Positions 6,671-35,592 of a DNA stretch of 56,695 nt are shown here, piece after piece (within the stretch, counting starts at the first letter, position 1; each line of letters begins with the position of its first letter). The notes beneath the pieces are model-generated. The model was not told the DNA's origin and ran no database searches. It saw only the letters and a list, made by a program, of their open reading frames with translations. Both the position numbers and the translations under genes were made by a program. The DNA is taken from IMG/VR virus record IMGVR_UViG_3300046063_000009; one strand, written 5' to 3'. The DNA is from a virus.

Positions 6671-6706
6671 ATGCCCGCCGCTATATAAATGTATAGCATA
6701 GCGGTG
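6671..6706 (-). promoter_or_regulatory. Conserved viral promoter, copy a
   Basis: Coding strand reads CACCGCTATGCTATACATTTATATAGCGGCGGGCAT, with the blocks GCTATGC / TACATTTAT (TATA) / CGGG(T/C)A, 16 nt before the ATG at 6654. Confidence 0.65.
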
Positions 6707-6757
6707 GGTGGGACGAGCGTCGCCTGGTCGCCGCTCAGGTGCGTGTGATCGCGTGCG

Positions 6758-8500
6758 TCAGGACTTGTGAACGCTGGTCTCGTACTGGCCCTGGCCCGCT
6801 CCAGCGCGGCCCAGCTTCTTCTCCGAAAATAGTGCGTACCGCATCGCATCGACACCGTGATCGTCCTCTTTGACCGGCTCGTCGCCGTCGTCCTGCCACG
6901 AGTAGCCCTGGATCTCGGTGAGCGTATCGGGCGGCTTATCGTCCGTCCGAAGGTGGCGATCGGCCTGGTGCGCTCGCGCGCCACGGATGAGGTGTACCTC
7001 GGCCCGACCGTTCTCGTCCACGCGGAGCCGGCGCTTCACCTCACGGATGCCATCGCTCACGTCCTTTCGCGCCGCCGTCGTGCGGAAGTACAGCGGATCG
7101 GGGATCTCTGTCTCGTCGGTTCCCTCTTCGCGGAGGTTCGCCGCGTAGCCACGGACGCCCTCTTTCCAGTCGGCGCGCTCGCCGCTGTCGTGGTCGGCGT
7201 AGACTCGCTCGACATGTTCGTACTCGTGTGGGGCCATCCGGTGCAGCGCTTCGCCCGCGATCTCGTCCGGTAGGGTGCGGGTGCGCATCAGCTCGCGGTA
7301 GAGGATGTACCCGTGCGTGGGGGTGCGCGCCCACCACTGCACGCAGGTTGGATCGGGTCGGTAGCCCCAGTCGATGCTCATGACGATCGGCGTGCCCTCC
7401 GGCGGGATCACGCGCGCTGGTTCGTACCCCGGATCGGCGTCGGGCGCTGCCTCGGCGTCGCCGGTCGGCGAGGAATAGGCGCGCTGTCTCGAGGCGAGGG
7501 TTTCGAAATTCGTAACCTGCCATTCGTCTCCAAGGAGATCGGCGACGTCCAGCGGGTTGATGACGTGGGTGGCGATCGAGAACTCGTCGTAGACGCGCCC
7601 CTCGTAGCCGACCCACTGCCCCCGGAGGAAGCGATCGGCGTCCGTCCCGGAGAACTGGTCTTTGAGCGTCGGCGCGTAGTCGTCGGGGTTGTGGATGTTA
7701 TCTTCGGTTTCGCCCTCGAAGACGTCGCCGACGCCCTCGTTGTAGAAGCGCTTATACAGCCAGTGCGTCGGGTCGTCGGGGTTCGTCGCGGCGTAGATCT
7801 GGCGCAGGGGGAGCTTCGGCACGTAGGGGTTCGACAGCGATTCGAGACGAAGGCGACCGGCGAGCATCAGCCACTCACCTTTCGTTAGTTCGATCACCTC
7901 ATCGACGCCGACGTGGCCGAGGTTCATTGACGCGACGTTGCCACCACCGCGCTGCGTGGAGCCGATCGTGTTCAGCCCCTTGTAGTATAGCACCGAGGTC
8001 GGCACCGTCGCCAGCGTCAGCTCATCGCACGCCTGGCAGGGCACCCGGATCGGGCCGTCGATCTCGGTGACGTCTTTCCCGAGGCGATTACGGATCGGTT
8101 CGCTCGTCTCGAACTCACAACCGGGGTTCGCGCAGTAGTGGCGAGGGTACAGCGGCGAGCGGATCTCAATGCGATGCCGGCTCTGGTGGTGATCGACGAC
8201 CTGGTTCTCTGGAAGCGTCTCGTCCAGCAGGACCTCCAAAGTGGTTTCCTTCAGCGAGGAGTGCGTCTTCCGGGCGAGTAGGCCACGGTTGCCCGGATAG
8301 AGGATCGACAGCAGGTAGGCCTTCTCGGTGACGGCGCGTGACTTCCCCGAACCGAACGCGCCCGATCCAAGGATCTCCGAAGCGGTCGATTCGAGAAAGC
8401 CGCTCTGCCACTCCAGTGGCTCGAACAGGTACGCGCGGGTCCCGGCACCGAAGCCACCACCGCCGGAGTCACCTACGCCTGCTCGGTCGTCTGTTGACAT
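6758..8500 (-). CDS. terL: Terminase large subunit with a zinc-ribbon insertion in the ATPase domain
   Basis: Walker A GSGAFGSGKSRAV, about 580 aa, packaging-module position. Trimmed to the ATG at 8500 (MSTDDRAGV...). Contains CANPGC...CQAC at aa 123-158. Confidence 0.8.
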   Translation of the reverse strand: MSTDDRAGVGDSGGGGFGAGTRAYLFEPLEWQSGFLESTASEILGSGAFGSGKSRAVTEKAYLLSILYPGNRGLLARKTHSSLKETTLEVLLDETLPENQVVDHHQSRHRIEIRSPLYPRHYCANPGCEFETSEPIRNRLGKDVTEIDGPIRVPCQACDELTLATVPTSVLYYKGLNTIGSTQRGGGNVASMNLGHVGVDEVIELTKGEWLMLAGRLRLESLSNPYVPKLPLRQIYAATNPDDPTHWLYKRFYNEGVGDVFEGETEDNIHNPDDYAPTLKDQFSGTDADRFLRGQWVGYEGRVYDEFSIATHVINPLDVADLLGDEWQVTNFETLASRQRAYSSPTGDAEAAPDADPGYEPARVIPPEGTPIVMSIDWGYRPDPTCVQWWARTPTHGYILYRELMRTRTLPDEIAGEALHRMAPHEYEHVERVYADHDSGERADWKEGVRGYAANLREEGTDETEIPDPLYFRTTAARKDVSDGIREVKRRLRVDENGRAEVHLIRGARAHQADRHLRTDDKPPDTLTEIQGYSWQDDGDEPVKEDDHGVDAMRYALFSEKKLGRAGAGQGQYETSVHKS

Positions 8501-8797: not shown

Positions 8798-9568
8798 TCA
8801 CTCCGCCTCGTACCCGGACGAACCAGCAGCACCGTCCGGGCCGGGCTCGGCCTCGGCCTCGGCGTCGGCGTCGGGGTTGGAAACCTCGATACTGCTGCCG
8901 TCCTCGAGGCCCACCTGGTCGGGCGAGGCTCCGACGAGTTGGGCGTGCTCGATGCCGGGCATTGAGTTGAGATCGACGCCAGCATAGACCTTCGCCTCGC
9001 TGATCCGGTGGTCCATCTCGCCCTCGACGCGGATGTCGGCCTGGTCGGGGGCCTTATCTATCTCGCCGAAGCTCTGCCGCATCTCGATCTCGTCGTAGAC
9101 CTGCTCGGAGACCTGGGTGCGCTGGTGGCGCTCCTCGCGCGTCCATTTGATGATGTCCTGTTTGGCCTGGCCGAGCCTGGTACCGACCGTGCTAAGTTTC
9201 GCGCTGTACTCCGTCGCGGTCATGCCTACGTCGTCGGGGTTGAGGCGCTGGAGGCGCTTCATCTCCTCTTGGAGCTCTTTCACCCGGTCCTCAGCCGCTT
9301 TGCGCTCTTTCCGGGCGGTGCTCGCCAGTTGCTCGAAGCTCTCGGTCTGCGAGCGGTGCTGATACATCAGAAAGCCAGTCCGCTGCTCGAAGCTCGCCGT
9401 CGTGGCTACCTCGTCAACCCACTGATCCATTCGTCCATCGTCCTTCTCGACGGCGTTCACTGAGACGCCGAACTCCTGGGCCAAGCGCTCGCAGCGCTGC
9501 GTGAACCCGACGCCCATCCGCGTCAGTTGTAAGTGCTGCTCACGCCGCTGGCGCAACTCTTTCCGCAT
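8798..9568 (-). CDS. Putative small terminase / DNA-binding packaging protein (position-based)
   Basis: Lies upstream of terL. N-terminal HTH-like GVGFTQRCERLAQEFGVSVNAVEKD, a coiled-coil middle and an acidic tail. Trimmed to the ATG at 9568. Confidence 0.4.
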   Translation of the reverse strand: MRKELRQRREQHLQLTRMGVGFTQRCERLAQEFGVSVNAVEKDDGRMDQWVDEVATTASFEQRTGFLMYQHRSQTESFEQLASTARKERKAAEDRVKELQEEMKRLQRLNPDDVGMTATEYSAKLSTVGTRLGQAKQDIIKWTREERHQRTQVSEQVYDEIEMRQSFGEIDKAPDQADIRVEGEMDHRISEAKVYAGVDLNSMPGIEHAQLVGASPDQVGLEDGSSIEVSNPDADAEAEAEPGPDGAAGSSGYEAE

Positions 9569-9677
9569 GATACCTTTTATCGCCGCGCTCTCGGTAAAAA
9601 GAACCCGGCACGAAGGGGGTGCGTGCAGCACGGCCAGCGCTGCCGTCCACCGGCCGGCGCTCCGATCTCTCCTGGCG

Positions 9678-9873
9678 ACTGACAGCGCACCCGGTCGAAT
9701 CGCTACCCGGAGGTGAGATCGAGCTGTCAGGCGTTAAGTAGGGGGCGCGGCAGCACTGACAGCGCTGCCGAGGGGATGGTGTGAGCGGTCGCTCGCGCCG
9801 GGGTGGGAGGCTACTTAAACACTGACAGCGGCGATCGATGGCTGGCTCCCGGTTCGGTGGGGAGCGCTGTCAG
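9678..9873. repeat. Array of five CTGACAGCG / CGCTGTCAG motifs with nested inverted repeats
   Basis: Motif copies at 9678-9687, 9723-9730 (inverted), 9754-9764, 9821-9830 and 9865-9873 (inverted). Inverted repeat GCTGTCAGgcgTTAAGTAG (9723-9741) / CTACTTAAacaCTGACAGC (9811-9829). Palindrome GGCAGCACTGACAGCGCTGCC (9749-9769). Confidence 0.8.
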
Positions 9874-10712
9874 CCCGCAGGGGAAGCGTCCGTGTGCTCG
9901 CCCTCCCCCTCGGGGACCACCCGATCGACGTAATTCACATACTTGATCCACTCGCGCATATCGTGCTCATCGATGTCGCGGTGGCGACCATCGGCGTAGT
10001 GCAGGTACGGCCGATAGCTCTCGATCGAGTGGCCGGTGAAGTCGAAGATCGTCGCCGTACCGAACGAACTCCCCTTCCAGCTCCGGCTATCCACCGAGTC
10101 GAAGGGGTGGCGCGAGCAGGAGGTAGCACTCCATGGAGTGTAGCCGAGCCCGTGGATCTTACAGTCGTGCTCGTGAGCGCGCTCGATAAACCAGGGGAAA
10201 TGCTTGTAGCTTCGTGGTTTGATCTCGTTTCCCGCTCCCGACCCGATCCCGCCGATCGCCACGTAATCGTAGCGCCGAACGAGGTCGAGAAACGCATCGC
10301 GGCCCCTGGTCGCGTGCCAGACGGGGATGCACGGTTTCCCGGCCTCAGATTCCAGGTGCTCGCGGATCTCGCGCACCGGCTCGGGGTCGTAGTCGAAGAT
10401 TGCATCCAGGTCCATGCCGAGGAAGAGGTCGATCTCGTGGCGCTTGACGCACTCCGCATACCCTTCGGCGTACTCGAACCAGTCGATCTCGTCCGGGTTG
10501 CCAGCCTTCTCGGAGCCACGCATGAACGTGTACGCACCGCTGTCGAGCATGAACGACTCCGGGGGAGCCTGTGGGTCGGGTTCGAGGAAAAGATCGCGTT
10601 GCCAGTCCTTGAGGTAGGCGTAGCTCTCGAGAAGGTACGGCGGATCGAGCACGCACTGCCGACCATCGAACAGAAAGTGTGCGCCGTGGGTCGCAGCGAG
10701 GTAGAGCTTCAC
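9870..10712 (-). CDS. dpdA: DpdA-like DNA-guanine transglycosylase (TGT superfamily)
   Basis: 280 aa with FMLDSGAYTF and VAIGGIGSG motifs. It is the last gene of the preQ0-synthesis operon. GTG start in a GTGA overlap with the upstream stop. Confidence 0.7.
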   Translation of the reverse strand: MKLYLAATHGAHFLFDGRQCVLDPPYLLESYAYLKDWQRDLFLEPDPQAPPESFMLDSGAYTFMRGSEKAGNPDEIDWFEYAEGYAECVKRHEIDLFLGMDLDAIFDYDPEPVREIREHLESEAGKPCIPVWHATRGRDAFLDLVRRYDYVAIGGIGSGAGNEIKPRSYKHFPWFIERAHEHDCKIHGLGYTPWSATSCSRHPFDSVDSRSWKGSSFGTATIFDFTGHSIESYRPYLHYADGRHRDIDEHDMREWIKYVNYVDRVVPEGEGEHTDASPAG

Positions 10713-11680
10713 GAGTCCTCGTCCTCGTTGCTACCGTCTTCATCGTCTCCATCGGAGTCGTCTTGTCGATCGTCTGACGAGCCCTCTAAGACGGCCTCCG
10801 TTGGAGCCTGCGCAGCACCGGCCTCGTCGGCATCGGTAGGCGGATCGACCACGCTAATCTCGAACTCGTCGCCACACTCGGGACAGCGCACGGCGAGCAG
10901 TTCGGCTCTCTCGCCGCTGTCATCGGCGTCCGCGCTCGGTGCGTCCTCGTCGAGGTCAGTAGTGCCGTCCTCGCTGTCGGCGCTGCTGTCGCCGCTGCTG
11001 TCGCCGGCTGTGGCTGCCTCGGAGTCGCCGTCGCTGCCGTTGCTCTCGTCGCTCGGAACCGTCGATGGAATGACGCGCACACCTTCGACGCGCTTTCGAT
11101 CAGGCGAGTGGTCGGCGTCCGGTAGCTCCTCGGGGTGGTCGGTGGCTTCGTCGTCCTCGTCTTGGGTTTCGCTCGGCGGGGTCGGGTCCACCTCCTCGAA
11201 GAACTCGTCGATGTCGTATAGCCCCTGCTCGATCATCTCGTCCACTTCGTCGCTGGTGAAGCCAGTAGTATCAACAGCGAGGTCATCGACGTCAGCCAGT
11301 TCGCTGAGTTCGATCTGGAGGTTGTCGTAGTTCCAAATGGAGTCGAACGCGGTCTTGTTATCCGCGATCCGCGCTGCGCGTACTTCCTCCGGCGAGAGAT
11401 CGTCGCGAACCATGATCGGGACGCGATCGAGTCCAAGATCGAGCGCCGCTAACCGCCGCCCGTGACCTTTGATGATAACGCGCTCCTCGTCTACGACGAT
11501 CGGCTGATCCCAACCACTGAGGATCGATTTCTTCAGGTCGGCGATTTGCTTCGGTGGGTGATCCTGGGGATTCTGCTCGTAGGGGTTGATCGACTCCAGC
11601 GGGACGATCTCGACGTCAGTGTGCATCCGCACGTCTGGTGTCTCGCCGTCGTCTCCGTCCTCGCCGTCGCTATCGCTCAC
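10709..11680 (-). CDS. ParB/Srx-domain protein (DpdB-like) with an acidic linker and a C-terminal zinc-ribbon motif
   Basis: IVPLESINPYEQNPQDHPPKQIADLKKSILSGWDQPIVVDE..IIKGHGRRLAALDLG is a ParB N-terminal domain signature. RCPECGDEFEI near the C-terminus. GTG start at 11680 (alternative ATG at 11626). Confidence 0.65.
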   Translation of the reverse strand: MSDSDGEDGDDGETPDVRMHTDVEIVPLESINPYEQNPQDHPPKQIADLKKSILSGWDQPIVVDEERVIIKGHGRRLAALDLGLDRVPIMVRDDLSPEEVRAARIADNKTAFDSIWNYDNLQIELSELADVDDLAVDTTGFTSDEVDEMIEQGLYDIDEFFEEVDPTPPSETQDEDDEATDHPEELPDADHSPDRKRVEGVRVIPSTVPSDESNGSDGDSEAATAGDSSGDSSADSEDGTTDLDEDAPSADADDSGERAELLAVRCPECGDEFEISVVDPPTDADEAGAAQAPTEAVLEGSSDDRQDDSDGDDEDGSNEDEDS

Positions 11681-15089: not shown

Positions 15090-15117
15090 CTACCCGAGCG
15101 ACCGAGGGTAAATATTG
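15090..15117 (-). promoter_or_regulatory. Promoter candidate for the deazaguanine operon
   Basis: Coding strand reads CAATATTTACCC...CGGGTAG, 13 nt before the ATG at 15076. It shares the CGGGTAG element with the conserved promoters. Confidence 0.4.
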
Positions 15118-16671: not shown

Positions 16672-16788
16672 TCCGCTGAAGCGAGGCGCGACCCGGACGG
16701 TGCGTCACCACCGTCCACGCAACTCTCATCGGCGCGCGCTGCACTGTACGGAGAGCTGGCTGGCCGTCCATCGCTTCGCTAGCAGTTA

Positions 16789-16825
16789 GTGCCCCGTTAT
16801 AGATAAATGTAGGGCATAGCGATAG
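16789..16825 (-). promoter_or_regulatory. Conserved viral promoter, copy b
   Basis: Coding strand reads CTATCGCTATGCCCTACATTTATCTATAACGGGGCAC. Confidence 0.6.
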
Positions 16826-21268: not shown

Positions 21269-21820
21269 TCAGGGGTCTTCGGAGTCCGCGCCGAAGCGGC
21301 CTGCCTGCGCGTACTCGTGCGCCCGGTTCACGATCTCGGCGTTGGCCACGCTCTCGCCCACTATGCGCAGGAACTTCACGTCGCCCTTGTCGCCGCGTTC
21401 GAGCATCACGTCGAACAGGTCGGAGAGCAGGTCGAAGCGAACCTCGTCCTGCACTCGATCGCCGTGGGCGCGTTCCGTCTCGATCCGCAGCAGGCGCGCT
21501 TCGGGGAAGTCGTACACGTCGCTCGGCTCGTTACGCGCGGAGCCGACGTACACGCACGTCCACACCGTGTCGCTCTCGGTAGCGTAGAAGCGCGTGTTGC
21601 CGTAGTTCTCCAGCAGCGCGTAGCCCTCGCGCTCGACCCACTCGTCTGCGCGGTCGGCGGCCTTCGCCTGCACCTGCATCGGGCGGCCCTGCGCGAGATC
21701 GAGCACGACGTCTCCTGGCTCGATCGGCAGGTCGCCTGTACGGGCTCGTGGAGCCGGCGTCGCCTGCTGATCTGTCTCGCTGTCCTGTGCCTCTGTCGTA
21801 GCGTGGTCGGGTTCGCTCAT
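21269..21820 (-). CDS. Hypothetical acidic protein (183 aa)
   Basis: The ATG at 21820 lies 16 nt after promoter copy c (the track start 21832 is a GTG). N-terminus MSEPDHATTEAQ is paralogous to that of the next gene. Confidence 0.75.
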   Translation of the reverse strand: MSEPDHATTEAQDSETDQQATPAPRARTGDLPIEPGDVVLDLAQGRPMQVQAKAADRADEWVEREGYALLENYGNTRFYATESDTVWTCVYVGSARNEPSDVYDFPEARLLRIETERAHGDRVQDEVRFDLLSDLFDVMLERGDKGDVKFLRIVGESVANAEIVNRAHEYAQAGRFGADSEDP

Positions 21821-21836
21821 GCTACGTCCCACCTAA

Positions 21837-21871
21837 CTACCCGCAAGAAAATAAATGTATAGCATAGCGCC
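21837..21871 (-). promoter_or_regulatory. Conserved viral promoter, copy c
   Basis: Coding strand reads GGCGCTATGCTATACATTTATTTTCTTGCGGGTAG, 16 nt before the ATG at 21820. Confidence 0.65.
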
Positions 21872-21945: not shown

Positions 21946-22881
21946 TTACTCGGTGTCCACGTCGAGGTCGCTCATCGCGTGCAGGTGCTCAAGCGCCTCG
22001 CCCTCGTACTTGAACGTCGCCCCGCACGCGCAGGTATATTCGTGCGACATCGATTCCATGCTCACCGAGTCGCCTTTCACCAGCTCGTCGGCGTCGGCGT
22101 CGTAGCCGTACTCGAACCGCTCGGCGAACACCACCTCCACCTCGATCCCGTGCTCGATCTCGCCGATCTCAGCCAGGAGATCGAGCATCGCGGTGCGCAC
22201 GCGGTCGAGCGAGCGCACGATGTTGGTCGCGCTGCCGTTCTCAGGGACCTCCACGTACAGGCCCTCGGCGTCTACGTCGAAGGCGTCGGCGATCGTGCGC
22301 GCCTGCTCGACGGAGCCGACCTTTACGATCGACTTGTAGTTGATCGCGTCGAGCGCTGCGTCGGCGTGCTCGTAGTCGCCGCCGTTTAGCAGCGCCTCGC
22401 CGTGCTCGCGCGCTGCCTGGGCGTGCCATTCCATCGTGAACGCATCGGGGAGCAACGTGGGCTCGTAGTTCTCCGCGTCGGTGCCCTCGAGAGCGCGCTC
22501 GGCGTCCTCGATCGTCTGCTCGGTGTCGGTGTCGTCGCTGTCGTCTGCCTGCTCCGCCTCGGGGTCGCTCTCGTTCTCGGCCTCGTCCTCGTCGGCGATC
22601 TTCTCGGCCTGCTCGTCGGCATCCAGCGCCTCGTTGACCAGGACCTCATCGACCTTGGCTTCGAGGATCGCGTCGTACAGGTCGGCGGTCTTCTTCCCGA
22701 CCGGCGAGACGCCTGGCGTCTCGCTCGCCAGGGGTTTGAGATCGCCGTAGACGATCTCGCCATCGTCGTCGCGCGTCTTGTAGTCGAGTGCCTTCTGCAC
22801 CTGCTCGCGCACGTCCTCGACGCGCGCGTCGTCAATATCTTCGATCTGTACCTCGGTCGTAGCGTCGTCAGTTTCGCTCAT
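21946..22881 (-). CDS. Hypothetical highly acidic protein (311 aa)
   Basis: The ATG at 22881 lies 16 nt after promoter copy d. N-terminus MSETDDATTEVQ. Confidence 0.75.
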   Translation of the reverse strand: MSETDDATTEVQIEDIDDARVEDVREQVQKALDYKTRDDDGEIVYGDLKPLASETPGVSPVGKKTADLYDAILEAKVDEVLVNEALDADEQAEKIADEDEAENESDPEAEQADDSDDTDTEQTIEDAERALEGTDAENYEPTLLPDAFTMEWHAQAAREHGEALLNGGDYEHADAALDAINYKSIVKVGSVEQARTIADAFDVDAEGLYVEVPENGSATNIVRSLDRVRTAMLDLLAEIGEIEHGIEVEVVFAERFEYGYDADADELVKGDSVSMESMSHEYTCACGATFKYEGEALEHLHAMSDLDVDTE

Positions 22882-22897
22882 GCTACACCGCAAAATA

Positions 22898-22933
22898 CTA
22901 CCCGCCGCTATATAAGTGTATGGGGTAGCGGTG
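22898..22933 (-). promoter_or_regulatory. Conserved viral promoter, copy d
   Basis: Coding strand reads CACCGCTACCCCATACACTTATATAGCGGCGGGTAG, 16 nt before the ATG at 22881. Confidence 0.6.
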
Positions 22934-27533: not shown

Positions 27534-27615
27534 AGTGGTGCAACTCTCCGCGATAGCCCGACCGAGCCGACCGGAGCACTGCTGGCCCGGAACGCGCCAT
27601 CGCTACCATAGCTTT

Positions 27616-27649
27616 CTACCCGGTAAGATATAAATGTACGCATAGCGCC
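27616..27649 (-). promoter_or_regulatory. Conserved viral promoter, copy e
   Basis: Coding strand reads GGCGCTATGCGTACATTTATATCTTACCGGGTAG. Confidence 0.6.
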
Positions 27650-27739
27650 GGATCGACGGCCGGACCGACCTCCGACCCCCACCGTGTCCGCTGCTATCCG
27701 CGGCTGTGGTACTATCCAGGCGAGGAGCGAGGCAGCGAG

Positions 27740-27772: not shown

Positions 27773-27775
27773 GGG

Positions 27776-28171
27776 TTAGCTGGTCGCCGGCGGTGCCGAC
27801 GCGGTGGTGTCATCGGCGTCGATCTCGCTGGTGACGTCAGCCAGCGAGGTAACGAGACGATCGATTGCTGCCGAGCGGGAGCGTGGCGTCTCGGTCCAGC
27901 CGGCGTCAGTCATGAGTGTCGAGAGCTGGTCGTCGGAGCACTCCTCGAGCATGGCGCGGATGCGGCGCTCTGAGCTGAGGGCGTGGTTCCGTGCAGTGCG
28001 ACCGTCAAGTTGCCCGCTCTGAGTGCGATAGTCGTAGCGCTCGGCGACCAGCGTCCAGGGCACCGAGGTATCGAGGTAGGCCGCGAGTTCGGCGGGGGGA
28101 GCACGGAGGTCGGGATTGATCCCTCGGAACGAAGGTGTCGATGCCGTGGACAAATCAGGATCGGCAGCCAT
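27776..28171 (-). CDS. Hypothetical protein (131 aa)
   Basis: ATG at 28171 with TATA-like CCTATAAATAAAA 24 nt upstream. It is the first gene of the leftward early block. Confidence 0.75.
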   Translation of the reverse strand: MAADPDLSTASTPSFRGINPDLRAPPAELAAYLDTSVPWTLVAERYDYRTQSGQLDGRTARNHALSSERRIRAMLEECSDDQLSTLMTDAGWTETPRSRSAAIDRLVTSLADVTSEIDADDTTASAPPATS

Positions 28172-28311
28172 GAACGAGTCTATGACCTCCGGCGGTTTTA
28201 TTTATAGGGTGCGTTTCGCCTCACGGTAGTCATACTTCAATGGATCGCCGGACGGGAGGCAGGTAGCTACCCGGACAGGTATAATTCGGTGGCCCTTTGA
28301 TTTCGACTGGA

Positions 28312-28350
28312 GCGCTGTCGATACCCCATACATTTACACGTTACGGGACA
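28312..28350 (+). promoter_or_regulatory. Conserved viral promoter, copy g (the only plus-strand copy)
   Basis: GCGCTGTCGATACCCCATACATTTACACGTTACGGGACA, 24 nt before the ATG at 28375. Confidence 0.55.
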
Positions 28351-28374
28351 TAAATTGAGGATAGCAGTGCAGTT

Positions 28375-29481
28375 ATGTCGGGATGCCACGGCACTCCGAT
28401 CCGATCACTCACCATGAGCAACCAGAACACAACCGCCGACCAGCAGGGCGATCACCGCCACGACCTTCCCTCCGACCCCGAGGACGAGGACGAGGGCGGG
28501 CGTGCAGGCTCGTCGTACACGTACGACCGGATTCACGCGGAGTACATTCCGCGCGAGCTGCGGCGCATGGCTCGCGCTCTCGATCTCGATGAGTCGGTGA
28601 TCGATCTCGCGCTCACCGTCGAGGAGCAGGCAGCGAGCGACGATCAGGAGCGCGAAGCGACCTTCAGAAGCACCGACGGGCGCGCAGCGGCGTGCCTGTT
28701 CGTTGCGCTGCGCCTCCAGGGTACCGGGGTGCCGATCTCGCAGGTGGTGGAGGTTTCGCGCGTCGAAAAGCGAACGATCCAGAACGCATACCGCGAACTC
28801 GTCCGGCGTTTGGGCCTGGAAGTACAGCCCGCACGCACCGGCCCGTTTCTCGAACGGTTCATGGACGAGCTCGGCGTGCCCGACGAGAGCCGCGAGCGCG
28901 CTCGGCGACTCCTCGAGGACGCGAAGGACGCGGGCCTCACTAGATCGAATCCCTCGGCGTCGAAGCGGACGCCAGTGCCACAGACCCTCGCTGGCTGTCT
29001 GGTCTACATCGTCGGGCGGATGGACGACCTCGGCATCTCGCAGGCAGCGATCGGTCGCGAGACGGGCGTGGCAGCGCCGACGATCCAGAAGCACTGGCTC
29101 AGGCTCGCGCGAGAGCTCCAGGTAGACGTCGAGCCACGCACGTTCGAGGCCAGCCCTGGGGACGGGAGTGCTGGCGAGGGGCGGTTCGGGACGGTCGATG
29201 ACGTCTTCGACGAGCTTCGCGAGCACGACCAGATTGGACCAGCACTGACGACCGACCTGGAGGCCGCTGCGCGCCGAACGATCCTCGACAGCGAGCTGCT
29301 GATCGGCGAGAAGCGGGTCGCGGGCGTGGTCGCCGGATCGATCTGGCACGTCCTTCGCGAGCAGCCCCGGTCGGAGCGCCCGATCGAGCAGCGCGATCTC
29401 GTTGCTGCGCTGCCGGTCTCGACGCCGACCGTGCGGAAGCGCGCCGACGAGTTCGACGAGGCGCTGCACGGAAGCGACTAA
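28375..29481 (+). CDS. TFB (TFIIB)-like protein: cyclin-fold core repeats without the N-terminal zinc ribbon
   Basis: AAACLFVALRLQGTGVPISQVVEVSRVEKRTIQNAYRELVRRLGL and TLAGCLVYIVGRMDDLGISQAAIGRETGVAAPTIQKHWLRLAREL match the two TFIIB cyclin repeats. A third similar segment is VAGVVAGSIWHVL...VAALPVSTPTVRKRADEF. There are no N-terminal Cys pairs. An alternative ATG is at 28414. Confidence 0.7.
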   Translation: MSGCHGTPIRSLTMSNQNTTADQQGDHRHDLPSDPEDEDEGGRAGSSYTYDRIHAEYIPRELRRMARALDLDESVIDLALTVEEQAASDDQEREATFRSTDGRAAACLFVALRLQGTGVPISQVVEVSRVEKRTIQNAYRELVRRLGLEVQPARTGPFLERFMDELGVPDESRERARRLLEDAKDAGLTRSNPSASKRTPVPQTLAGCLVYIVGRMDDLGISQAAIGRETGVAAPTIQKHWLRLARELQVDVEPRTFEASPGDGSAGEGRFGTVDDVFDELREHDQIGPALTTDLEAAARRTILDSELLIGEKRVAGVVAGSIWHVLREQPRSERPIEQRDLVAALPVSTPTVRKRADEFDEALHGSD

Positions 29482-30529: not shown

Positions 30530-30704
30530 TGTTCGCCTCCGTGATCGCAGCGGTGTCGTGGGCGAACTCCTCGGCGTCGGTTCCGATCGGTGTCTTTGCG
30601 CTCACAGTGCAGCGTTCGTTTCCGGCTCCATAGGTGTGTATGCTACCCGGGAGGAACGTGAATCGAACGTCGGACGACTGGCTGACGGAGCTTTAGGAGG
30701 CTGG

Positions 30705-30778
30705 GGTGTCACCCTGGCGTATGTCGAGTGGTGACGGCTCGGGTGACATACTGAGTATCGGGGTGACGGGGGAGTGAC
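30705..30778 (+). promoter_or_regulatory. (G/A)GTGAC repeat array, candidate operator of the RHH protein
   Basis: GGTGtCACC palindrome at 30705-30713. GGTGAC at 30730, 30742 and 30762, and AGTGAC at 30773, with spacings of 12, 20 and 11 nt. The last copy overlaps the GTG start. Confidence 0.45.
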
Positions 30779-31193: not shown

Positions 31194-31706
31194 TCGAGGA
31201 AGCACAGAACCGACGTCGAACGCGAGCCGCCGAAGCCACCGACCGTGTTTATGGGCTCGACGTCGCCGCGCTATCCGAGACGGTGGACGCTCGAAGGTGG
31301 TTCGGTGGCGGGTGGTGGCTCGCGCAGCGACCCCGGCCGCCGATGCCAGTGCGAGACGGGCGGGTGCGAACTCCGATCACCGACCGGCAGCGGTGCGCCA
31401 CCGGGATCGCTACGAGAGGGCCGCTCTTCTGAGCCTTCATCGAGTGAGACACGACCGCACGACAGCGTGTCGTCCTCGATTAGCCCCGTACCAGGGGCAA
31501 CACCCGGAGTGCGTGAGTCCCTCCAGATTCACGCAGGGTGACCGGGGTACCCGAGAAGGAGACCGGAGCGGTCTTAATCATTTCCGAACCGTGAGTAACA
31601 TTAACTGAGTCTCTACTTTCCCGCAACTACCGAGCGCTGCTGGCACGCGCTGGACTTGGAAGGCCGAGAGCGGTACCTGTTAACCGATAGAGGTGTTTTT
31701 TACAAT

Positions 31707-31861
31707 TTAGCGGTAACAATATCCGGGGCTGCACACTTTGCACACTTTCTGGAGTATCTTAAGGATGGAGAGCAAAGGGGAGTAGCGTATTTCACCTCTC
31801 CATAGTAAGGAGATCGCTAAAACCGTGCAAAGTATGCAAAGCAGGTTAATATTACCGCTAA
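31707..31861. repeat. Nested inverted repeats with 9-mer iterons in an AT-rich patch, candidate replication origin
   Basis: Outer arms TTAGCGGTAA (31707-31716) / TTACCGCTAA (31852-31861). GCACACTTT x2 (31731-31748) faces GTGCAAAGTATGCAAAGC (31825-31842). Inner stem ATGGAGAG (31765-31772) / CTCTCCAT (31797-31804). Confidence 0.5.
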
Positions 31862-31935
31862 TCGGTCGCCATCAAGCGGTGGCTGATGGCCGTGCTGGTA
31901 GCTCACCGCTCACCGACTTCGTGTTCCGGTGGCCG

Positions 31936-32301
31936 TTAGCCGAACTCGTCCAGGTAGCACTGCACTGTCGCCTCGCCGTGGAACCACGCGAGCAGCACCT
32001 CGCCGTGGCAGACAAACGGACGCTCGGGCGAGCCCTCGATCACGCCATCAACGCACCAGCAGCCAAGCACCTCACCGCGCAGATCGGTGAGCGCGCGCTT
32101 GAACTCCGTGCCGTTCACGGGATCGTCGAGCCGTTGATCGAACCACTCCTCGTACTTCTCGATGGACTCCGCGCGGGTGTGCTCGCCGCCGGCCTCCTCG
32201 AGAACGTAGGGGTTCCCGAAGCGCGAGCTCCGATCGACGCGCCGAGTGACGGCGTCCTCGCGCTGGCGCATATTGACCAGCTTCGTCACGCGGTCTCTCA
32301 T
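31936..32301 (-). CDS. DUF4326-family protein
   Basis: SSRFGNPY...LRGEVLGCWC...FVCHGEVLLAWF matches the DUF4326 pattern. ATGA overlap with the primase-helicase stop. Confidence 0.7.
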   Translation of the reverse strand: MRDRVTKLVNMRQREDAVTRRVDRSSRFGNPYVLEEAGGEHTRAESIEKYEEWFDQRLDDPVNGTEFKRALTDLRGEVLGCWCVDGVIEGSPERPFVCHGEVLLAWFHGEATVQCYLDEFG

Positions 32302-35135
32302 CAGTCAAGCACCCTGCGTACCGCTGTCTCCCGCTCGGTGCTCTCGTCTTCACCGGCTGGCTGCACGTCTACACCACCGTCGGTCATCGGCTCGCCGCTC
32401 TCACCCCCGTTACTACCGTCCCCCTCGCTGTCGTCGTCCTCGTCGTCCTCTTCGTACGCTCCGAGGCCGCCCATCGGTTCACGGGTCTGCTCCTCGGCGT
32501 CCTCGCCATCGTCTTCGCGCTCCCGGAGATCGTCGAGCATCGCTCCGGGATCGAAGCCGAGCTCGTCCAGCGCGTTCCCGTTGAACTTCACGCCGACGTA
32601 AGCCGTCCACTGGCGACCGTTCGGTTTCACCTTCCGCCGCCCGTCGGTGATCTGTCCGTCGGTCTTTAGCTCTCGAGTGAGCTTTGTCTGGGTTTCGACT
32701 TCCGCACCGACGTGCTCGGCAGCGAACCTCGCGTACAGCGCGTGAGCGACCGGCTTCACGATCACGTCCTCCGGCGACCCGGTGACCTTCAAGCAGCTCT
32801 GCTTGAAGCGCTTGATCGTATCGCCGTAGGCCTCCCACTGGTCGCGCTTATCCACGACGTGCGGATCGTGAGTAAACCCGCCCTCGCGCTGGAGTCGAGC
32901 ATACCCTTCGAGCGCCCAGTTGAGGATGCCGGGGAGTTCATTCTCGATGATACGATCTGCGAGGTCGCGGTCCTGCTGGCTCCGCGGGATCGTCTCGGGG
33001 AACATAATGTGCAGCCAGCGCTCGTGGAAGGCGTCGTCGGCGTCATTCGCGGGGGGGACGCGATTCGTCGCAAAGAGGTGCTTCGCCGTCGGGTCGAACT
33101 GGAACTTGTTCTCACCCTTCCGCTCGGCAGAGACCGGATCGCCGCCGCCGACGATCGATTTGAACAGGCCCACTGATTCGAGCGTATGGGTCTCGAGCTC
33201 GTTCGAGATGTTGGCGAGCTTCCCCTGAAGCTCGGCCTTCCCCCACCTGGAGTTCACCAGCGAGTCCAGGTTCTCCGCCGAGACGTTACGCTGGCCGATC
33301 AGCTCTTTGACGATCGTCAAGAAGGTACTTTTCCCAGAGTCCTTCGGGCCGAGCAGCAGCGCCGCGCGCTTGTGTGGCTGGCCCCAGTGGTGCAGGCAGT
33401 ACCCGACGTACTCCTGTAAGGTGGCAGCGTTCTCTTCGGTCACTACGCTTCCCAAGAACTCCTCAAACTCGGGGCACTCGGCTTCGGGCTCGTAGACGGT
33501 CGGTATCCCCCGGACGAACCGGAAGGCCGGGTCGTGCTCGCCGAGGGTGACGTCGTCGGGCGTCGAGATGTCGAGGACGCCGTTCTGCACGCAGACCGCT
33601 CCGTCGGGACCGCCGATGTCGTCTATCGGCACCTGCGTCAGTCGCTTCACGACCGCCATGATCTCGTTCTCTCGGTTCACCCGGTACTCGGTGCCGAGCG
33701 CGCTAGCGAGGCGATTCTGAATCGGTGCCGATCCCCGCCGGTAGACCCCGGTGCCGGAGTCGTAGCAGAACACGTCGTTCATCTTCCCCTCGTGGGTCAC
33801 CTCCGTAATCACGGGCGTCTCACGGCGCACCTCGGTCGCCGCGTTCTGGAGCGCGCGCCCGTGGCTCCCCGCCTCGGTGGAGATAAACGAGTCGCGCACG
33901 TCGCCCCAGTGATCGCCCCGCGCCTGATCGCCGTCCTCGTAGCTCGGCCCGACCTCCGCGACCGGTACGTCCTCGGCAGCACTCTCGCTCGCAGCATCCG
34001 CCGACGTCGATGTCGCTGCCGCCTGCTCGCCCGGATCGTTCGACGTGGCCTTGGCTTCGCTGTGAGCGGTCGGTGCGTCGGGGACGTCGTAGCCCTGCTC
34101 TCGCGCAGCGTCGTAGATCGACCGCCAGGTCTGTGCATCTAGCCCATCGGGGACCCACTCACCGCACTCGATCTCGCCGACGAGCATCCCGAGCAGGTAG
34201 CCAGCGTGGCCGGTCACACCGTGTCGCCAGCACCGGAAGGTCTCGCCATCCTCGTCGACAAGGAAGTTCGCGCCCGTCGAGGAGTTATGGACCGGATGTT
34301 CGCAGCGCTCGCCAGCCGGGTACTGCGAGCGCGCGATGAGATCGTAGACGTCCAGGTCCACCGGCTCGCCCGACGCTGCTGTCGAGCCGCCACTACCGCT
34401 CGCGCTCGCGCTCCCAGCACCGCCGGAGCTCGTATCGATCCAGGGGACCCACTCGTCGGAGGTCGGATAGTCCTCGTCGGGGTGCTCTGCGTCCCACTCG
34501 TCGGCATCAGGCATCGGGTTGAACACCCACCAGGCGCGTTGTAGCCACTCTTCGAAGCGTGCCTGGTCGCTCTCGTCGAGCACGGCCGGCGTGTTGCTGT
34601 CATCGGTGAACTCCTCGGCGTCCCCGGTGACGGTAAAGTAGCGCCCCTCGGAGTACGCCGCGATCTCCCGGCTCGCGCTGCCGTCGGGCGCGTCGATCGC
34701 CTGGTTCGTCCACCACTCGGGTATCGAGACGCCCTTCAGTATCGGGTGCAGGCCGCTCCCCGAGGGTGAGCGCTCGGTGTAGCATCCCTCCAGCAGCGAG
34801 AGATCAGGCACCCAGGAGTCGCCCTCGGGGTCGTTGTCTGGCACGTCGACGTCGATACCGAGGTAGTCGTCGGCGGTTGAGAAGACGAAGCCAATCCCCG
34901 CGTAGCCATGTGCCCGCTCGCCCTCGACGGCAGTGTCGAACGGTGCCCAAGTAGCGAGATCGTCGGCCTTCGCGTAGCCGGTGCCGTTGGCCTCGCGCGG
35001 GATCTTCGTCGCTTTACTGTTGCGCTCGCCAGTCTCCCAGCAAATCCACTGGCCGCGCCTCCGCAGCTCGGTCGGGACGAGACGGTAGCGTTCGGATGCC
35101 GATGGCTGGTCGTCAGGGTTACTCTCTGCGGCCAC
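32301..35135 (-). CDS. Bifunctional primase-polymerase (AEP) / D5-P4-type SF3 helicase
   Basis: HGYAGIGFVFSTADDYLGIDVDV (prim-pol motif) and ALLLGPKDSGKSTFLTIV (Walker A). 944 aa with an acidic C-terminal tail. GTG start. Confidence 0.8.
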   Translation of the reverse strand: MAAESNPDDQPSASERYRLVPTELRRRGQWICWETGERNSKATKIPREANGTGYAKADDLATWAPFDTAVEGERAHGYAGIGFVFSTADDYLGIDVDVPDNDPEGDSWVPDLSLLEGCYTERSPSGSGLHPILKGVSIPEWWTNQAIDAPDGSASREIAAYSEGRYFTVTGDAEEFTDDSNTPAVLDESDQARFEEWLQRAWWVFNPMPDADEWDAEHPDEDYPTSDEWVPWIDTSSGGAGSASASGSGGSTAASGEPVDLDVYDLIARSQYPAGERCEHPVHNSSTGANFLVDEDGETFRCWRHGVTGHAGYLLGMLVGEIECGEWVPDGLDAQTWRSIYDAAREQGYDVPDAPTAHSEAKATSNDPGEQAAATSTSADAASESAAEDVPVAEVGPSYEDGDQARGDHWGDVRDSFISTEAGSHGRALQNAATEVRRETPVITEVTHEGKMNDVFCYDSGTGVYRRGSAPIQNRLASALGTEYRVNRENEIMAVVKRLTQVPIDDIGGPDGAVCVQNGVLDISTPDDVTLGEHDPAFRFVRGIPTVYEPEAECPEFEEFLGSVVTEENAATLQEYVGYCLHHWGQPHKRAALLLGPKDSGKSTFLTIVKELIGQRNVSAENLDSLVNSRWGKAELQGKLANISNELETHTLESVGLFKSIVGGGDPVSAERKGENKFQFDPTAKHLFATNRVPPANDADDAFHERWLHIMFPETIPRSQQDRDLADRIIENELPGILNWALEGYARLQREGGFTHDPHVVDKRDQWEAYGDTIKRFKQSCLKVTGSPEDVIVKPVAHALYARFAAEHVGAEVETQTKLTRELKTDGQITDGRRKVKPNGRQWTAYVGVKFNGNALDELGFDPGAMLDDLREREDDGEDAEEQTREPMGGLGAYEEDDEDDDSEGDGSNGGESGEPMTDGGVDVQPAGEDESTERETAVRRVLD

Positions 35136-35556
35136 CGATGATCACCGTCCCTCGCCGTTCTTCCTTTCGCCTGAATCGCCGCTAAACTGGCGATTGAAGG
35201 GGGTAAGGGTCTGAATCCAGTCGGTACTATTATTTGGTTGGGTGGTCTTTAGAATCATGCGTTGTCACGTGTCGGCGTGCTAGAACCATGCTGTATGCGT
35301 GAAGCGGTGCTGAACGTAGCTCCACGCGGTCGGGGCTGTGATCGCGCTCAACTGATCCGCTCATGCTGCTGGTCAGGGACGGCCGGTCATGCGGTCGTAG
35401 TGCAGCGGCGTAGCAACCGAGGTCGTCTCCGGTCACGGCGCGCGTCCCGCGAACGAGCCTACTACAATCCCGTACCGGGGGCACGCGGTGGCCGACGACG
35501 GCCCTGCGGTTGTTCTTCGGTGTGATGCGTCCTCTCATAGACGTGTCTAGCGTAAT

Positions 35557-35592
35557 CTACCCCGTGGCAGATAAATGTACGCGATAGCGACC
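35557..35592 (-). promoter_or_regulatory. Conserved viral promoter, copy f
   Basis: Coding strand reads GGTCGCTATCGCGTACATTTATCTGCCACGGGGTAG, about 420 nt upstream of the primase-helicase start. Confidence 0.6.

Follow-up and report, generated by a model that had tools for sequence, protein, structure and literature searches.

The question raised by this locus is whether seven similar sequences in the 56.6-kb genome of a metagenomic tailed virus of salt-loving archaea (haloarchaea) are promoters of one class and, if so, which protein reads the sequence blocks that they share. Viruses of this kind possess no RNA polymerase of their own and, to our knowledge, few of their regulators have been characterised. 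The seven sequences very probably are complete haloarchaeal promoters that form one class, and it is highly likely that they control a single regulon. All seven strings quoted in a preliminary description of this DNA match the window (the whole stretch that was analysed, 56,695 nucleotides) exactly, at the positions and on the strands reported there; consistent with the single promoter class that it proposed, all are intergenic and oriented toward downstream genes:

6652..6706, minus strand: promoter copy a, CGCTATGC block to ATG, exact match, 43.1 bits, predicted start ~6659
16769..16825, minus strand: promoter copy b, exact match, 41.7 bits, predicted start ~16777
21818..21871, minus strand: promoter copy c, exact match, 41.9 bits, predicted start ~21825
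22879..22933, minus strand: promoter copy d, core TACACTTAT, upstream block GCTACCC, 40.4 bits, predicted start ~22886
27598..27649, minus strand: promoter copy e, upstream block 1 nt nearer the core, 30.9 bits, predicted start ~27604
28312..28377, plus strand: promoter copy g, GATACCC, TACATTTAC and CGGGACA, 37.1 bits (leave-one-out 25.9), predicted start ~28363
35536..35592, minus strand: promoter copy f, exact match, 42.1 bits, predicted start ~35545

Both strands of the genome were scanned with a weight matrix of 34 columns, indexed (idx) from -11 to +22 around the TACA core. The seven sites score 31-43 bits (15.5-37 bits in leave-one-out runs), whereas the next-best match in the genome, at 13 bits, is at the null level (12-18 bits in shuffled genomes). 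The gap between 31-43 and 13 bits indicates that there are exactly seven members and no intermediates, all seven in intergenic DNA and none in coding DNA. The exact word TACATTTAT occurs five times compared with 0.02 expected from dinucleotide shuffles.

The transcription start was predicted by placing TTAT (idx 5-8) at -27/-28, following the consensus of other haloarchaea, so that the start falls at idx 34. In this geometry, an upstream block, CGCTAYSC, is located at about -44 to -37 and is followed by an invariant TACA at the BRE position, a TTTAT TATA box, an SGGGTAG block at -18 to -12, and a W-W pair at -11/-10 (idx 23-24) that is present in all seven copies (TA, TA, TT, TA, AA, AT and AA in copies a to g, respectively), an assignment that depends on the predicted start. 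Six of the seven copies contain TAGC at idx 30-38, with (G)TAGC as the predicted start site, and in copies a-f an ATG is found at idx 38-41, 4-7 nt beyond the predicted start (in copy a, GTAGC is at idx 34-38 and ATG at idx 39). The TATA box recognised in the preliminary description is borne out (TTTAT in six copies, TTTAC in copy g), as is the distance of 16 nt between the last block and the ATG in copies a, c and d. Two other points require revision: the term "tripartite" is too narrow given that the -10 W-W pair and the start-site TAGC are conserved as well, and GCTATGC, which had been assigned to the BRE, lies upstream of it, at -43 to -37, the haloarchaeal geometry placing the invariant TACA at -34 to -31. 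GCTATGC is an extended-BRE or upstream element, not the BRE.

The basal haloarchaeal promoter consists of a CGAAA BRE, TTWT at -27/-28 and WW at -10/-11, and the mRNAs are mainly leaderless (Brenneis et al. 2007, PMC2151090; Babski et al. 2016, PMC4983044). The viral promoters resemble it in the TTWT box, in the W-W spacing (7 of 7 copies) and, for copies a, c and d, in the position of the ATG a few nucleotides past the predicted start. They differ in that about 45 bp are conserved compared with about 10, in the additional blocks at -44 to -37 and -18 to -12 together with TAGC at +1, and in the BRE, where TACA after variable bases departs from the CGAAA consensus and the A residues alone agree. 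Across the seven copies, pairwise identity is 0.94 in the core TACAyTTAy and 0.70 in the SGGGTAG block versus 0.36 and 0.31 in the spacers; blocks are thus kept while spacers are randomised, which argues for selection over recent copying.

The credible genes start 5 to ~410 nt beyond the seven sites. Copies a, c and d drive, respectively, a 208-aa ORFan (6028-6654) located in the packaging module, with the terminase and portal genes on either side, a 183-aa acidic ORFan (21269-21820) and a 311-aa acidic ORFan (21946-22881). These three copies have in common an 85-nt repeat (D3) that takes in the first ~12 codons (MxEPDDATTE), beyond which the encoded proteins are unrelated; given this link by duplication, there are at most five independent copies of the promoter. 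An inverted repeat, CCGCTAT/ATAGCGG (7-bp and 6-bp arms), is found only in the paralogous copies a and d, and a stem-loop or inverted repeat as a general feature was discarded on account of its absence from five of the seven copies. A run of four T (T4) is present ~45 nt upstream of copy c. The most diverged copy, g, drives a gene for a TFB-like protein.

The fixed distance to start codons claimed in the preliminary description holds for copies a, c and d but not for the credible genes behind b, e and f. The first credible gene after copy b encodes a SWIM zinc-finger protein (16069-16671, ~106 nt past the predicted start) and that after copy e a 445-aa protein (26196-27533, ~71 nt), whereas copy f is followed by ~410 nt of apparently non-coding DNA and then by the gene for a D5-type primase-helicase (32301-35135). 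The conserved ATG of b, e and f probably opens no real gene. The ORFs that begin there are Arg-rich, have a GC3 of 0.56-0.65 (47 codons and 0.65 in the case of copy b) compared with at least 0.72 in the credible genes here, and are not called by public gene callers. The leaders of b, e and f show no mutual alignment, and shuffled versions of the 410 nt behind promoter f fold equally well (z = -0.17); RNA-element readings were rejected, the window containing neither an Rfam family nor a tRNA.

Related genomes reveal which parts of the promoter persist. In a strain variant (L090) that is 98.5% identical overall, there are 8 differences in the ~62 nt around copy e, none of them in the blocks, and the 4-bp CCGG arms at this copy are lost; the contigs found for sites a, c, d and f are identical to the window. 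A second metagenomic virus lineage (L097, L098 and L100) keeps the arrangement sCTAwkC-GTAsm-TATA-N8-GGTAG before orthologous genes, although the orthologous proteins are only 39-46% identical between the window and this lineage. Related promoters precede orthologues of the gene behind copy e, of the N-terminus encoded behind copy d and of the TFB-like gene; for example, the promoter of the L098 orthologue of the e gene aligns with copy e as GTAsm-TTTwwA-N8-GGTAG-WW with identical spacing. In the second lineage, GCCTAATCGGTAGC-TTTAWA is present in at least 5 + 2 copies, frequently with a G-rich stretch and GGTA(G/C) behind it at the same idx 18-22; of the TTTAW sites, at most 10 in number, 4 show this combination, compared with 0 of 73 in six control loci. 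Thus, taken strictly, the block is not "virus-specific" as had been proposed, homologous architecture being present in another lineage. The flanks do differ by virus: CGCTAYSC/SGGGTAG here, GCCTAATC in the second lineage, AACATAACCG in L099 and TTTCCC-N3-GGGAAA in HHTV-2. The GGTAG block is absent from L099 and L101, although both encode TFB-family members.

Relatives identified by way of the capsid protein (HHTV-2, HCTV-2 and ~18 IMG/VR contigs) or of the primase (L093 and L094) lack the motif. A scan of IMG/VR for TACATTTAT-N8-GGGTAG identifies 65 single chance matches in unrelated contigs, nearly all of low GC, and the pattern GCTATGC-N1-2-TACATTTAT-N8-GGG has one chance match in JGI metagenomes (a 39% GC contig) and only three chance bacterial matches in 185,579 reference genomes (GTDB). 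Given that these scans return chance matches only, the exact motif is confined to the present virus within the three collections. A megablast search with 10 kb against isolate phages yields no match, an IMG/VR scan for homologues of the TFB-like protein and a scan for those of the e-gene protein find none, and a blastn search of plasmids with the promoter gives chance Listeria matches only. The nearest isolate, HHTV-2 (51% capsid identity), contains five copies of a promoter of its own, TTTCCC-N3-GGGAAA-sc-TTTAT-N23-GTGTAGCAGG, which was found in the present analysis, and no TFB-like gene is present in its genome; hence, a repeated promoter needs no viral TFB.

The blocks of the present virus are likely to be read by a dedicated factor rather than passively inherited. 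The viral TFB-like protein mentioned in the preliminary description is indeed encoded in the window, next to a divergently transcribed gene:

28375..29481, plus strand: TFB paralogue without zinc ribbon; residues 1-45 disordered, cyclin repeats ~47-250, third HTH-containing helical repeat 274-365
27776..28171, minus strand: p131, a 131-aa protein of unassigned fold, divergent from the TFB-like gene; the pair is kept in L098 and L099

The two cyclin repeats of the TFB-like protein are identified by a match to PF00382 (1.2e-17) and by phmmer similarity to the PDB entries 1d3u_B and 1ais_B (1e-16), and the structure model (pLDDT 74.8) is matched by Foldseek to 1d3u_B with a TMt of 0.72. There are no CxxC pairs of a zinc ribbon in residues 1-45, which are predicted to be disordered, and the ORF is inextensible upstream. 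Five of the six aligned homologues begin directly at the core, and the short N-terminal extension of P0078 likewise contains no CxxC pairs. Neither a B-reader nor a B-linker is present: the region alignable with TFB/TFIIB starts at query residue 60, equivalent to core residue ~10, and canonical TFBs in a library of 1.84 billion proteins match query residues 60-250 only. A split TFB with the ribbon supplied by the plus-strand Zn-ribbon ORF at 23023-23439 was considered and rejected, as Pfam and PDB comparisons give no TFB ribbon match. Both virus lineages encode a ribbon-less, three-repeat TFB paralogue. The gene in the window is preceded by motif copy g, and the homologues in L097, L100 and L099 are preceded by the repeated motif of their own virus. 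The TFB-like protein is the leading candidate for the reader of the class-specific blocks.

The mechanism that we favour can be outlined as follows. The seven copies of one archaeal promoter, extending from about -45 to +8, would direct a co-regulated gene set, with host TBP bound to the TTTAT box and a TFB-family protein contacting both flanks of the box. RNA polymerase would initiate ~27 nt downstream of TTTAT, at (G)TAGC, producing leaders of 4-7 nt for a, c and d and of 12 to ~410 nt for g, e, b and f. Beyond a generic promoter, the class would be defined by TACA in place of the CGAAA BRE, by SGGGTAG at -18 to -12 and by CGCTAYSC just above the BRE. In Pyrococcus furiosus, cyclin repeat 1 of TFB1 (F192) cross-links to DNA at positions -20 and -16/-17, and BRE recognition is the task of the HTH in repeat 2 (PMC13502027). 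The viral blocks would lie at the equivalent DNA contacts, of cyclin repeat 2 at the BRE and of cyclin repeat 1 at -16 to -20, and the upstream block would adjoin the presumed position of the extra C-terminal domain; SGGGTAG reaches -12, past the contact zone of cyclin repeat 1. The coincidence of block positions with TFB contacts points to a TFB-family core as the reader of the class. There is an even chance that the dedicated factor belongs to the TFB family, and confidence in the statement as a whole, from one regulon of complete promoters up to reading by a TFB-family core, falls somewhat short of even. The narrower assignment, to the viral ribbon-less paralogue specifically, is tentative.

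Lacking the zinc ribbon and the B-reader, the viral TFB could occupy TBP-promoter complexes and not recruit polymerase, and accordingly would be no ordinary initiation factor; its predicted effect at the promoters of this class is feedback shut-off or competition with host TFB, not activation. An extended, rather doubtful version of this scheme is that the three-repeat ribbon-less TFB of a family of tailed haloarchaeal viruses, together with host TBP, reads sCTAwkC/GTAsm upstream of TATA as well as GGGTAG, and acts as a sequence-specific TFB decoy that switches off the virus's own multi-copy, putatively early promoters, and possibly those of the host, thereby timing the infection programme. 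Should the decoy reading be correct, a viral factor would, for the first time, be shown to hijack the archaeal pre-initiation complex through its TFB step. The genome offers a small, defined regulon of seven promoters with ~45 conserved bp each, and a candidate trans-factor derived from the basal machinery, a TFB core devoid of the domain that recruits polymerase; a second lineage keeps both this factor and the promoter architecture. If the two are linked, they provide a natural system for studying how a TFB core reads both sides of the TATA box and how a ribbon-less TFB affects the pre-initiation complex, and the motif could guide searches for early and anti-defence genes of haloarchaeal viruses, as is already the case in crenarchaeal viruses. 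If the link fails, the class nevertheless provides a haloarchaeal case, and a clean one, of an established viral strategy.

An alternative, unlikely but the strongest of those considered, is that a strong host-type core is flanked by operators (CGCTAYSC, SGGGTAG and TAGC) for a conventional viral regulator of the RHH, HTH or wHTH type that would switch the class off or on, the TFB-like gene being a plain member of the regulon. Such control is the documented mechanism of the closest known kind (compare Aca8 of rudiviruses, PMC11065993), and the HHTV-2 promoters combine a palindrome of the type bound by dimeric regulators with the lack of a TFB-like gene. The window itself encodes an RHH protein (30774-31193), a sigma70_r4-like HTH protein (20625-20894) and a wHTH at the C-terminus of the product of 17271-19286. 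These candidates have no homologue in the compared stretches of L097/L098/L100 (12 kb + 7.5 kb), where, among the predicted regulators of the window, only the TFB-like gene has one (the p131 gene is shared, too); other regulators in common may lie beyond these stretches. Furthermore, the blocks are neither dyad-symmetric nor directly repeated in all copies, CCGCTAT/ATAGCGG being limited to a and d, and their positions match TFB contacts.

The behaviour of CGGGTAG outside the seven promoters bears on the same alternative. This word occurs 17 times in the genome compared with 7.3 expected, and 10 of the 17 occurrences are intergenic (intergenic DNA makes up 9.9% of the genome), nine of these on the coding strand. 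It is found alone at six further intergenic sites, at a variable distance from the TATA box, which is more in keeping with an independent operator than with a TFB contact at a set position. The recurrence of CGGGTAG at other promoters had been noted in the preliminary description, which placed two of the sites at late and structural operons; 47755-47761 is at the tail-operon promoter, and 15090-15117 precedes a 7-deazaguanine biosynthesis cluster, not a structural operon. Stand-alone elements include:

9703..9709, minus strand: intergenic, upstream of gene 8798-9631
15090..15096, minus strand: precedes the GATase-QueC gene, with the TATA-like AATATTTAC 11-12 nt before the element
28267..28273, minus strand: 5-7 nt past AATTATAC, where the p131 and TFB-like genes diverge; overlaps the palindrome GGTAGCTACC
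30643..30649, minus strand: intergenic, in the divergent region 30530-30773
47755..47761, minus strand: at the predicted start of the tail-operon promoter, TATTTTATTT 18 nt upstream

The palindrome GGTAGCTACC (28262-28271) was dismissed as a meaningful element, being single and no more than expected by chance.

Haloarchaea possess several TFB and several TBP paralogues. The blocks might, accordingly, tune the promoters to one particular TFB/TBP pair of the host, such that the viral genes join a host regulon and no viral DNA-binding factor is involved, which we regard as rather improbable. The match of the TATA flanks to contacts of the TFB core is compatible with this possibility, as is the abundance of TFB paralogues in haloarchaea and their plasmids (182 plasmid records), and the two virus lineages with the common architecture may share host types; a published proposal holds that promoter variants are distinguished by different TBP/TFB variants (PMC2151090). 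Against host tuning speak the finding of the strict pattern in none of the 185,579 reference genomes bar the three chance bacterial matches, and conservation of ~45 bp, far more than the choice of a paralogue requires. That the promoter together with the start codon is a cassette spread by recombination, its likeness reflecting ancestry with no dedicated factor, an origin proposed for T4-type promoter stem-loops and, in the account given in PMC3950731, for the HGTV-1 motif, is quite improbable: although the 85 nt common to a, c and d, including ~12 codons ahead of unrelated remainders, are the signature of a mosaic junction and b, e and f retain the ATG at idx 38-41 probably without a real gene, the spacers are randomised and the blocks kept, the strain variant differs in spacers only, the blocks persist where orthologous proteins have diverged to 39-46% identity, and inverted repeats are missing in five of the seven copies.

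The promoter class has several partial counterparts. In crenarchaeal viruses such as SIRV2, SMV2 and SSVs, early (anti-defence) genes are preceded by a strong BRE/TATA core with virus-specific consensus sequences around it (Bhoobalan-Chitty et al. 2024, PMC11065993). Judged by analogy, the present class is a haloarchaeal variant of this "virus-specific consensus regulatory sequence", a known kind of control sequence in a new setting. In both cases, a near-identical core is found at several genes with flanks that are conserved within but differ between viruses, the downstream genes are mainly poorly conserved ORFans, and the gene of the presumed regulator bears the motif itself. The differences are that the present virus is tailed and has a haloarchaeal host, the BRE is the non-canonical TACA and not purine-rich, a conserved block lies after the TATA box and before the -10 region, a replication gene (primase) also belongs to the class, and the role of candidate regulator falls to a truncated TFB instead of a wHTH or leucine-zipper protein. 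Non-canonical TFB family members used by a mobile element or a stress regulon are represented by TFB3 of Sulfolobus, which keeps the ribbon and has lost the core, and by TFIIB homologues on thaumarchaeal integrative-conjugative elements (PMC6101591; PMC6563490). The truncation of the viral protein is the reverse of that in TFB3: the core is kept, the ribbon and the B-reader are lost, and a third repeat is gained.

Among haloarchaeal tailed viruses, HGTV-1 has a TATA box with an inverted repeat before many early-side ORFs, likened to T4-type PeSLs (Sencilo et al. 2013, as summarised in PMC3950731). The two viruses have in common a repeated promoter-bearing motif and signs of module shuffling (here, the promoter and 5' codons of a, c and d), but in the present virus the inverted repeat is found only in a and d and the copies are far fewer. 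HHTV-2 has, like the present virus, a repeated complete promoter with identical TTTAT-N25-GTAGC spacing and the start-site word GTAGC; it differs in the upstream palindrome and in having neither a GGGTAG block nor a TFB-like gene. Its leaders, unlike those of the present virus, are 15-20 nt long and Shine-Dalgarno-like in appearance.

The family of seven promoter copies in the window is real and highly non-random. All seven strings quoted in the preliminary description match the window exactly, and each copy is oriented to a downstream reading frame:

6706-6671, minus strand: copy a, between the terminase and portal genes
16825-16789, minus strand: copy b, first credible gene encodes a SWIM zinc-finger protein
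21871-21837, minus strand: copy c, before an acidic ORF
22933-22898, minus strand: copy d, before an acidic ORF
27649-27616, minus strand: copy e, first credible gene encodes a 445-aa protein (26196-27533)
35592-35557, minus strand: copy f, first credible gene encodes the primase-helicase
28312-28350, plus strand: copy g, TFB-like gene (28375-29481) downstream

The string TACATTTAT occurs 5 times against 0.02 expected. With a weight matrix derived from the seven copies, the members score 31-43 bits; elsewhere, on both strands, no site exceeds 13 bits, a score that shuffled genomes also attain, so that the family is discrete, with exactly seven members. The proposed comparison of motif counts inside and outside coding DNA places none of the seven full motifs in coding DNA.

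The window begins and ends with a perfect 55-nt direct repeat (1-55 and 56641-56695); the identical termini indicate a complete genome that assembled as a circle of 56,640 bp (G+C content 64%), with nearly all genes on the minus strand. It encodes portal, large terminase, major capsid, tape-measure and baseplate proteins, as well as a 7-deazaguanine biosynthesis cluster and a D5-type primase-helicase. The capsid proteins of Haloarcula virus HHTV-2 and of HCTV-2 have 51% and 47% identity, respectively, to that of the window, and no DNA similarity was found among isolate phages; judging from sequence, the source is thus an uncultured tailed virus of haloarchaea. The window is matched exactly by a Logan contig of run SRR18079254, and variants at 95-98% identity are present in JGI samples 3300046055 and 3300046057.

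Counted from the T of the invariant TACA (idx 0), the copies contain the following elements:

idx -10 to -3: CGCTAYSC (one base closer in copy e)
idx 0-8: TACAyTTAy
idx 16-22: SGGG(T/C/A)A(G/T/C)
idx 23-24: W-W, in 7 of 7 copies
idx 30-38: TAGC, in 6 of 7 copies
idx 38-41: ATG in copies a-f (idx 46 in g)

The promoter had been described as tripartite; five conserved parts are found, not three. In haloarchaeal promoters, TTWT is centred at -27/-28, with a CGAAA BRE just 5' of it and WW at -10/-11, and the mRNAs are mostly leaderless (PMC2151090; PMC4983044). With TTAT (idx 5-8) set at the published TTWT position, the predicted start is idx 34; in a, c and d this base is the G of GTAGC. Given this start, the W-W pair falls at exactly -11/-10 in every copy, SGGGTAG at -18 to -12, TACA at -34 to -31, which is the BRE position, and CGCTAYSC at -44 to -37. 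Thus, the GCTATGC block, initially assigned to the BRE, is an element upstream of it.

The word CGGGTAG also occurs outside the class, 17 times in all against 7.3 expected; 10 of the 17 occurrences are intergenic, in 9.9% of the genome, and 9 of these 10 are on the coding strand. The earlier observation that it is shared with other promoters stands:

15096: upstream of the QueC cluster, 4 nt further from the TATA than in the class
47761: predicted start of the tail operon
9709, 23141, 28273 and 30649: further sites outside the class

Because its spacing from the TATA varies, CGGGTAG apparently can act independently of the class geometry.

A strain contig 98.5% identical to the window (L090) differs at eight positions (substitutions, one insertion and one deletion) within 62 nt around copy e, and all eight lie outside CGCTATGC, TACATTTAT, CCGGGTAG, AAA and GTAGCGATG; the insertion brings back the 2-nt spacing found elsewhere in the class, and the variant has lost an upstream in-frame ATG. 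A full HMMER scan of 1.84 billion representative proteins shows that the family of the TFB-like protein is small, comprising P0074-P0078 (35-41% identity) and P0100. The contigs L097/L098 and L100, a second virus lineage that encodes members of this family, have tail genes 38-49% identical to those of the window and look like tailed viruses. A repeated promoter of their own, GCCT-AATCGGTA(G/C)C-TTTAWA, is present in at least five copies (L097/L098) and at least two (L100), one of them directly 5' of the TFB-like gene:

L097: 1131, 4674, 9395
L098: 1658, 2913, 3220, 4672
L100: 577, 1372

In this lineage, a G-rich segment plus GGTA(G/C) follows the TATA at idx 16-23, as in the window, at 4 of at most 10 TTTAW sites, compared with 0 of 73 sites in six control loci, namely, HHTV-2, HCTV-2, two primase-based relatives (L093 and L094) and two other contigs with TFB-like family members (L099 and L101). 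L099 has a different shared motif, AACATAACCG..TATA, at 5189 and 6156. Downstream of the second-lineage promoters lie a 46%-identical orthologue of the e gene and orthologues of the TFB-like gene and of d in its N-terminal part; the e pair has identical spacing:

Window: GCGCTATGC-GTACA-TTTATA-TCTTACCG-GGTAG-AA
L098: GCCTAATCG-GTAGC-TTTTAA-CCCCGGGC-GGTAG-TA

This shared architecture before orthologous genes indicates that sCTAwkC-GTAsm-TATA-N8-GGTAG-WW predates this virus and was kept while the adjacent proteins diverged to ~40-45% identity; the label "virus-specific" accordingly needs correcting. The promoter interpretation is well supported by the geometry and by these two levels of comparative evidence, and the copies are very probably promoters of one class.

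Pfam finds TFIIB repeats in the TFB-like protein, and in a phmmer search the TFB/TFIIB cores of 1d3u, 1ais and 1vol align with residues 60-257. In the AlphaFold model (pLDDT 74.8), the N-terminal residues 1-45 are disordered, and two cyclin repeats are followed by a linker and then by a third domain of five helices; the best target-normalised Foldseek match is the Pyrococcus TFBc/TBP/BRE-TATA complex (TMt 0.72). The zinc ribbon, B-reader and B-linker are absent, and no upstream extension of the ORF is possible. No zinc ribbon is present in any of the six homologues; apart from P0078, with its short N-terminal extension, they begin right at the cyclin core, and all have the third C-terminal repeat, which in this family contains an HTH. 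A search of isolate phages found no homologue, and haloarchaeal plasmid TFBs match the core only; all occurrences of the ribbon-less family are on virus-like metagenomic contigs, with none among the isolate phages and plasmids searched. TFIIB homologues are carried by mobile elements of Thaumarchaeota (PMC6563490), TFB goes unmentioned in a large survey of tailed archaeal viruses (PMC8651126), and our literature search found no report of a ribbon-less viral TFB. The divergent arrangement of the TFB-like gene and a gene for a 131-aa protein (27776-28171, minus strand) is kept in L098 and L099; the region between them may serve as a regulatory switch; it contains the palindrome GGTAGCTACC and, at 28194-28208, a second TATA, CCTATAAATAAAACC.

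It is established that the zinc ribbon recruits RNA polymerase, that the B-reader and the B-linker open the promoter and that the BRE is read by the HTH of cyclin repeat 2 (restated in PMC13502027), and in P. furiosus TFB1, F192 of cyclin repeat 1 forms cross-links to DNA at -20 and -16/-17 (PMC13502027). The TACA and SGGG blocks flank the TATA at TFB contact positions and so, by analogy, would sit on two known contact zones of the TFB core; the upstream block would adjoin the place of a domain appended after repeat 2. Under the mechanism that we propose, the seven copies would define a regulon whose promoter core is used by host TBP and RNA polymerase and whose class-specific blocks would be read by a TFB-family core, most likely that of the viral ribbon-less paralogue. 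This paralogue would occupy TBP-promoter complexes without recruiting polymerase and hence would turn off the class, the more diverged promoter of its own gene (g) included. That a dedicated factor reads the blocks is likely; for its being a TFB-family protein the chances are about even, and its identity with the viral paralogue is a tentative assignment. Both the role of the TFB-like protein at these promoters and an early timing of the class are hypotheses; given where copy a lies, the class extends beyond a replication or "early" block. A compact cis-regulon paired with an unusual basal-factor paralogue is of interest as a directly testable system.

HHTV-2 has five copies of TTTCCC-N3-GGGAAA-sc-TTTAT-N23-GTGTAGCAGG (369, 1679, 5934, 22290 (+) and 38688 (-)), with the same TTTAT-N25-GTAGC spacing as the window class. 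The ATG follows GTGTAGCAGG after 8-11 nt, one promoter of this type is found in a metagenomic relative (L079, 7456), and the literature examined contains no description of it. This analogous promoter in a virus without a TFB-like gene speaks against the TFB link, as do L099 and L101, which encode family members but lack the GGTAG block, and the other spacings of CGGGTAG. The closest described kind of system is the "virus-specific consensus regulatory sequence" of crenarchaeal viruses, which surrounds a strong BRE/TATA core in front of early genes, most of them anti-defence, and is repressed by a regulator whose own gene bears the motif (PMC11065993, the main text of which does not mention haloarchaea). 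A conventional RHH or HTH regulator, as in rudiviruses, could read the blocks in the same manner; with the blocks located on TFB contact zones, we consider this possible but unlikely. Tuning of the promoters to one host TFB/TBP paralogue would likewise involve these zones and dispense with a viral factor; such tuning appears somewhat less likely still. In the haloarchaeal myovirus HGTV-1, a motif of the type "TATA box plus inverted repeat" recurs and has been compared to the promoter stem-loops of T4 (PMC3950731); in the window class, an inverted repeat is not found at every copy.

The genes behind the copies are heterogeneous in their spacing. Behind a, c and d, credible acidic ORFs open 5 nt after the predicted start; an 85-nt repeat common to these copies covers the first ~12 codons (MxEPDDATTE), the rest of the three proteins being unrelated, which looks like a promoter-plus-start cassette joined to different genes. 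Passive spread of such a cassette is nevertheless an improbable source of the class as a whole because conservation is block-wise, unlike recently copied DNA, with pairwise identity high in the core (0.94) and the third block (0.70) and only 0.36 (idx 9-15) and 0.31 (idx 25-33) in the spacers. Behind b, e and f, the first credible genes begin ~106, ~71 and ~410 nt from the predicted start, so that the fixed distance to start codons does not extend to the whole class; the ORFs from the ATG after these copies have GC3 of 0.56-0.65 and Arg-rich products and are not called by public gene callers. The ~410 nt between promoter f and the primase start (35136-35545, minus strand) contain no credible ORF (a 102-codon ORF has GC3 of 0.64, is Arg-rich and is absent from the public record) and yield neither an RNA structure signal nor an Rfam match. 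Oligo-T runs 5' of c and e are consistent with separate transcription units. The sequences after the stop codons upstream of these two copies (about 21885-21945 and 27690-27775, minus strand) are alike, each with TAACC(C)GACGCGCTGCA and then a run of four or five Ts, and probably are related terminators.

Several other features of the genome deserve mention. Divergent from promoter d is a 138-aa ORF (23023-23439, plus strand; also called by the Logan gene caller) with a CxxC...CxxC zinc ribbon. A TATA of its own, GTTTTATTC (22990-22998), precedes the ATG of this ORF by 22 nt; the ORF has no match in Pfam or PDB and shares a 33-nt repeat (FMDALGG) with 25018-25050 and the TFB-like gene. The non-coding 730-nt stretch at 31206-31935, which adjoins the primase operon and contains several AT-rich tracts, is a possible replication origin, with no strong repeats detected by a repeat finder. 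The 7-deazaguanine (queuosine/archaeosine-type) cluster (9870-15076, minus strand) encodes a ParB_N-domain protein, GTP cyclohydrolase I, a radical-SAM QueE-like protein, QueD/PTPS and a GATase-QueC fusion, which suggests modified guanines in virion DNA. The genes in 35140-39100, including that of a baseplate protein (36822-39023), have a third-position G+C below that of the rest of the genome and may be a recently acquired host-recognition module. The tape-measure gene contains four in-frame 129-nt tandem repeats (45893-46356).
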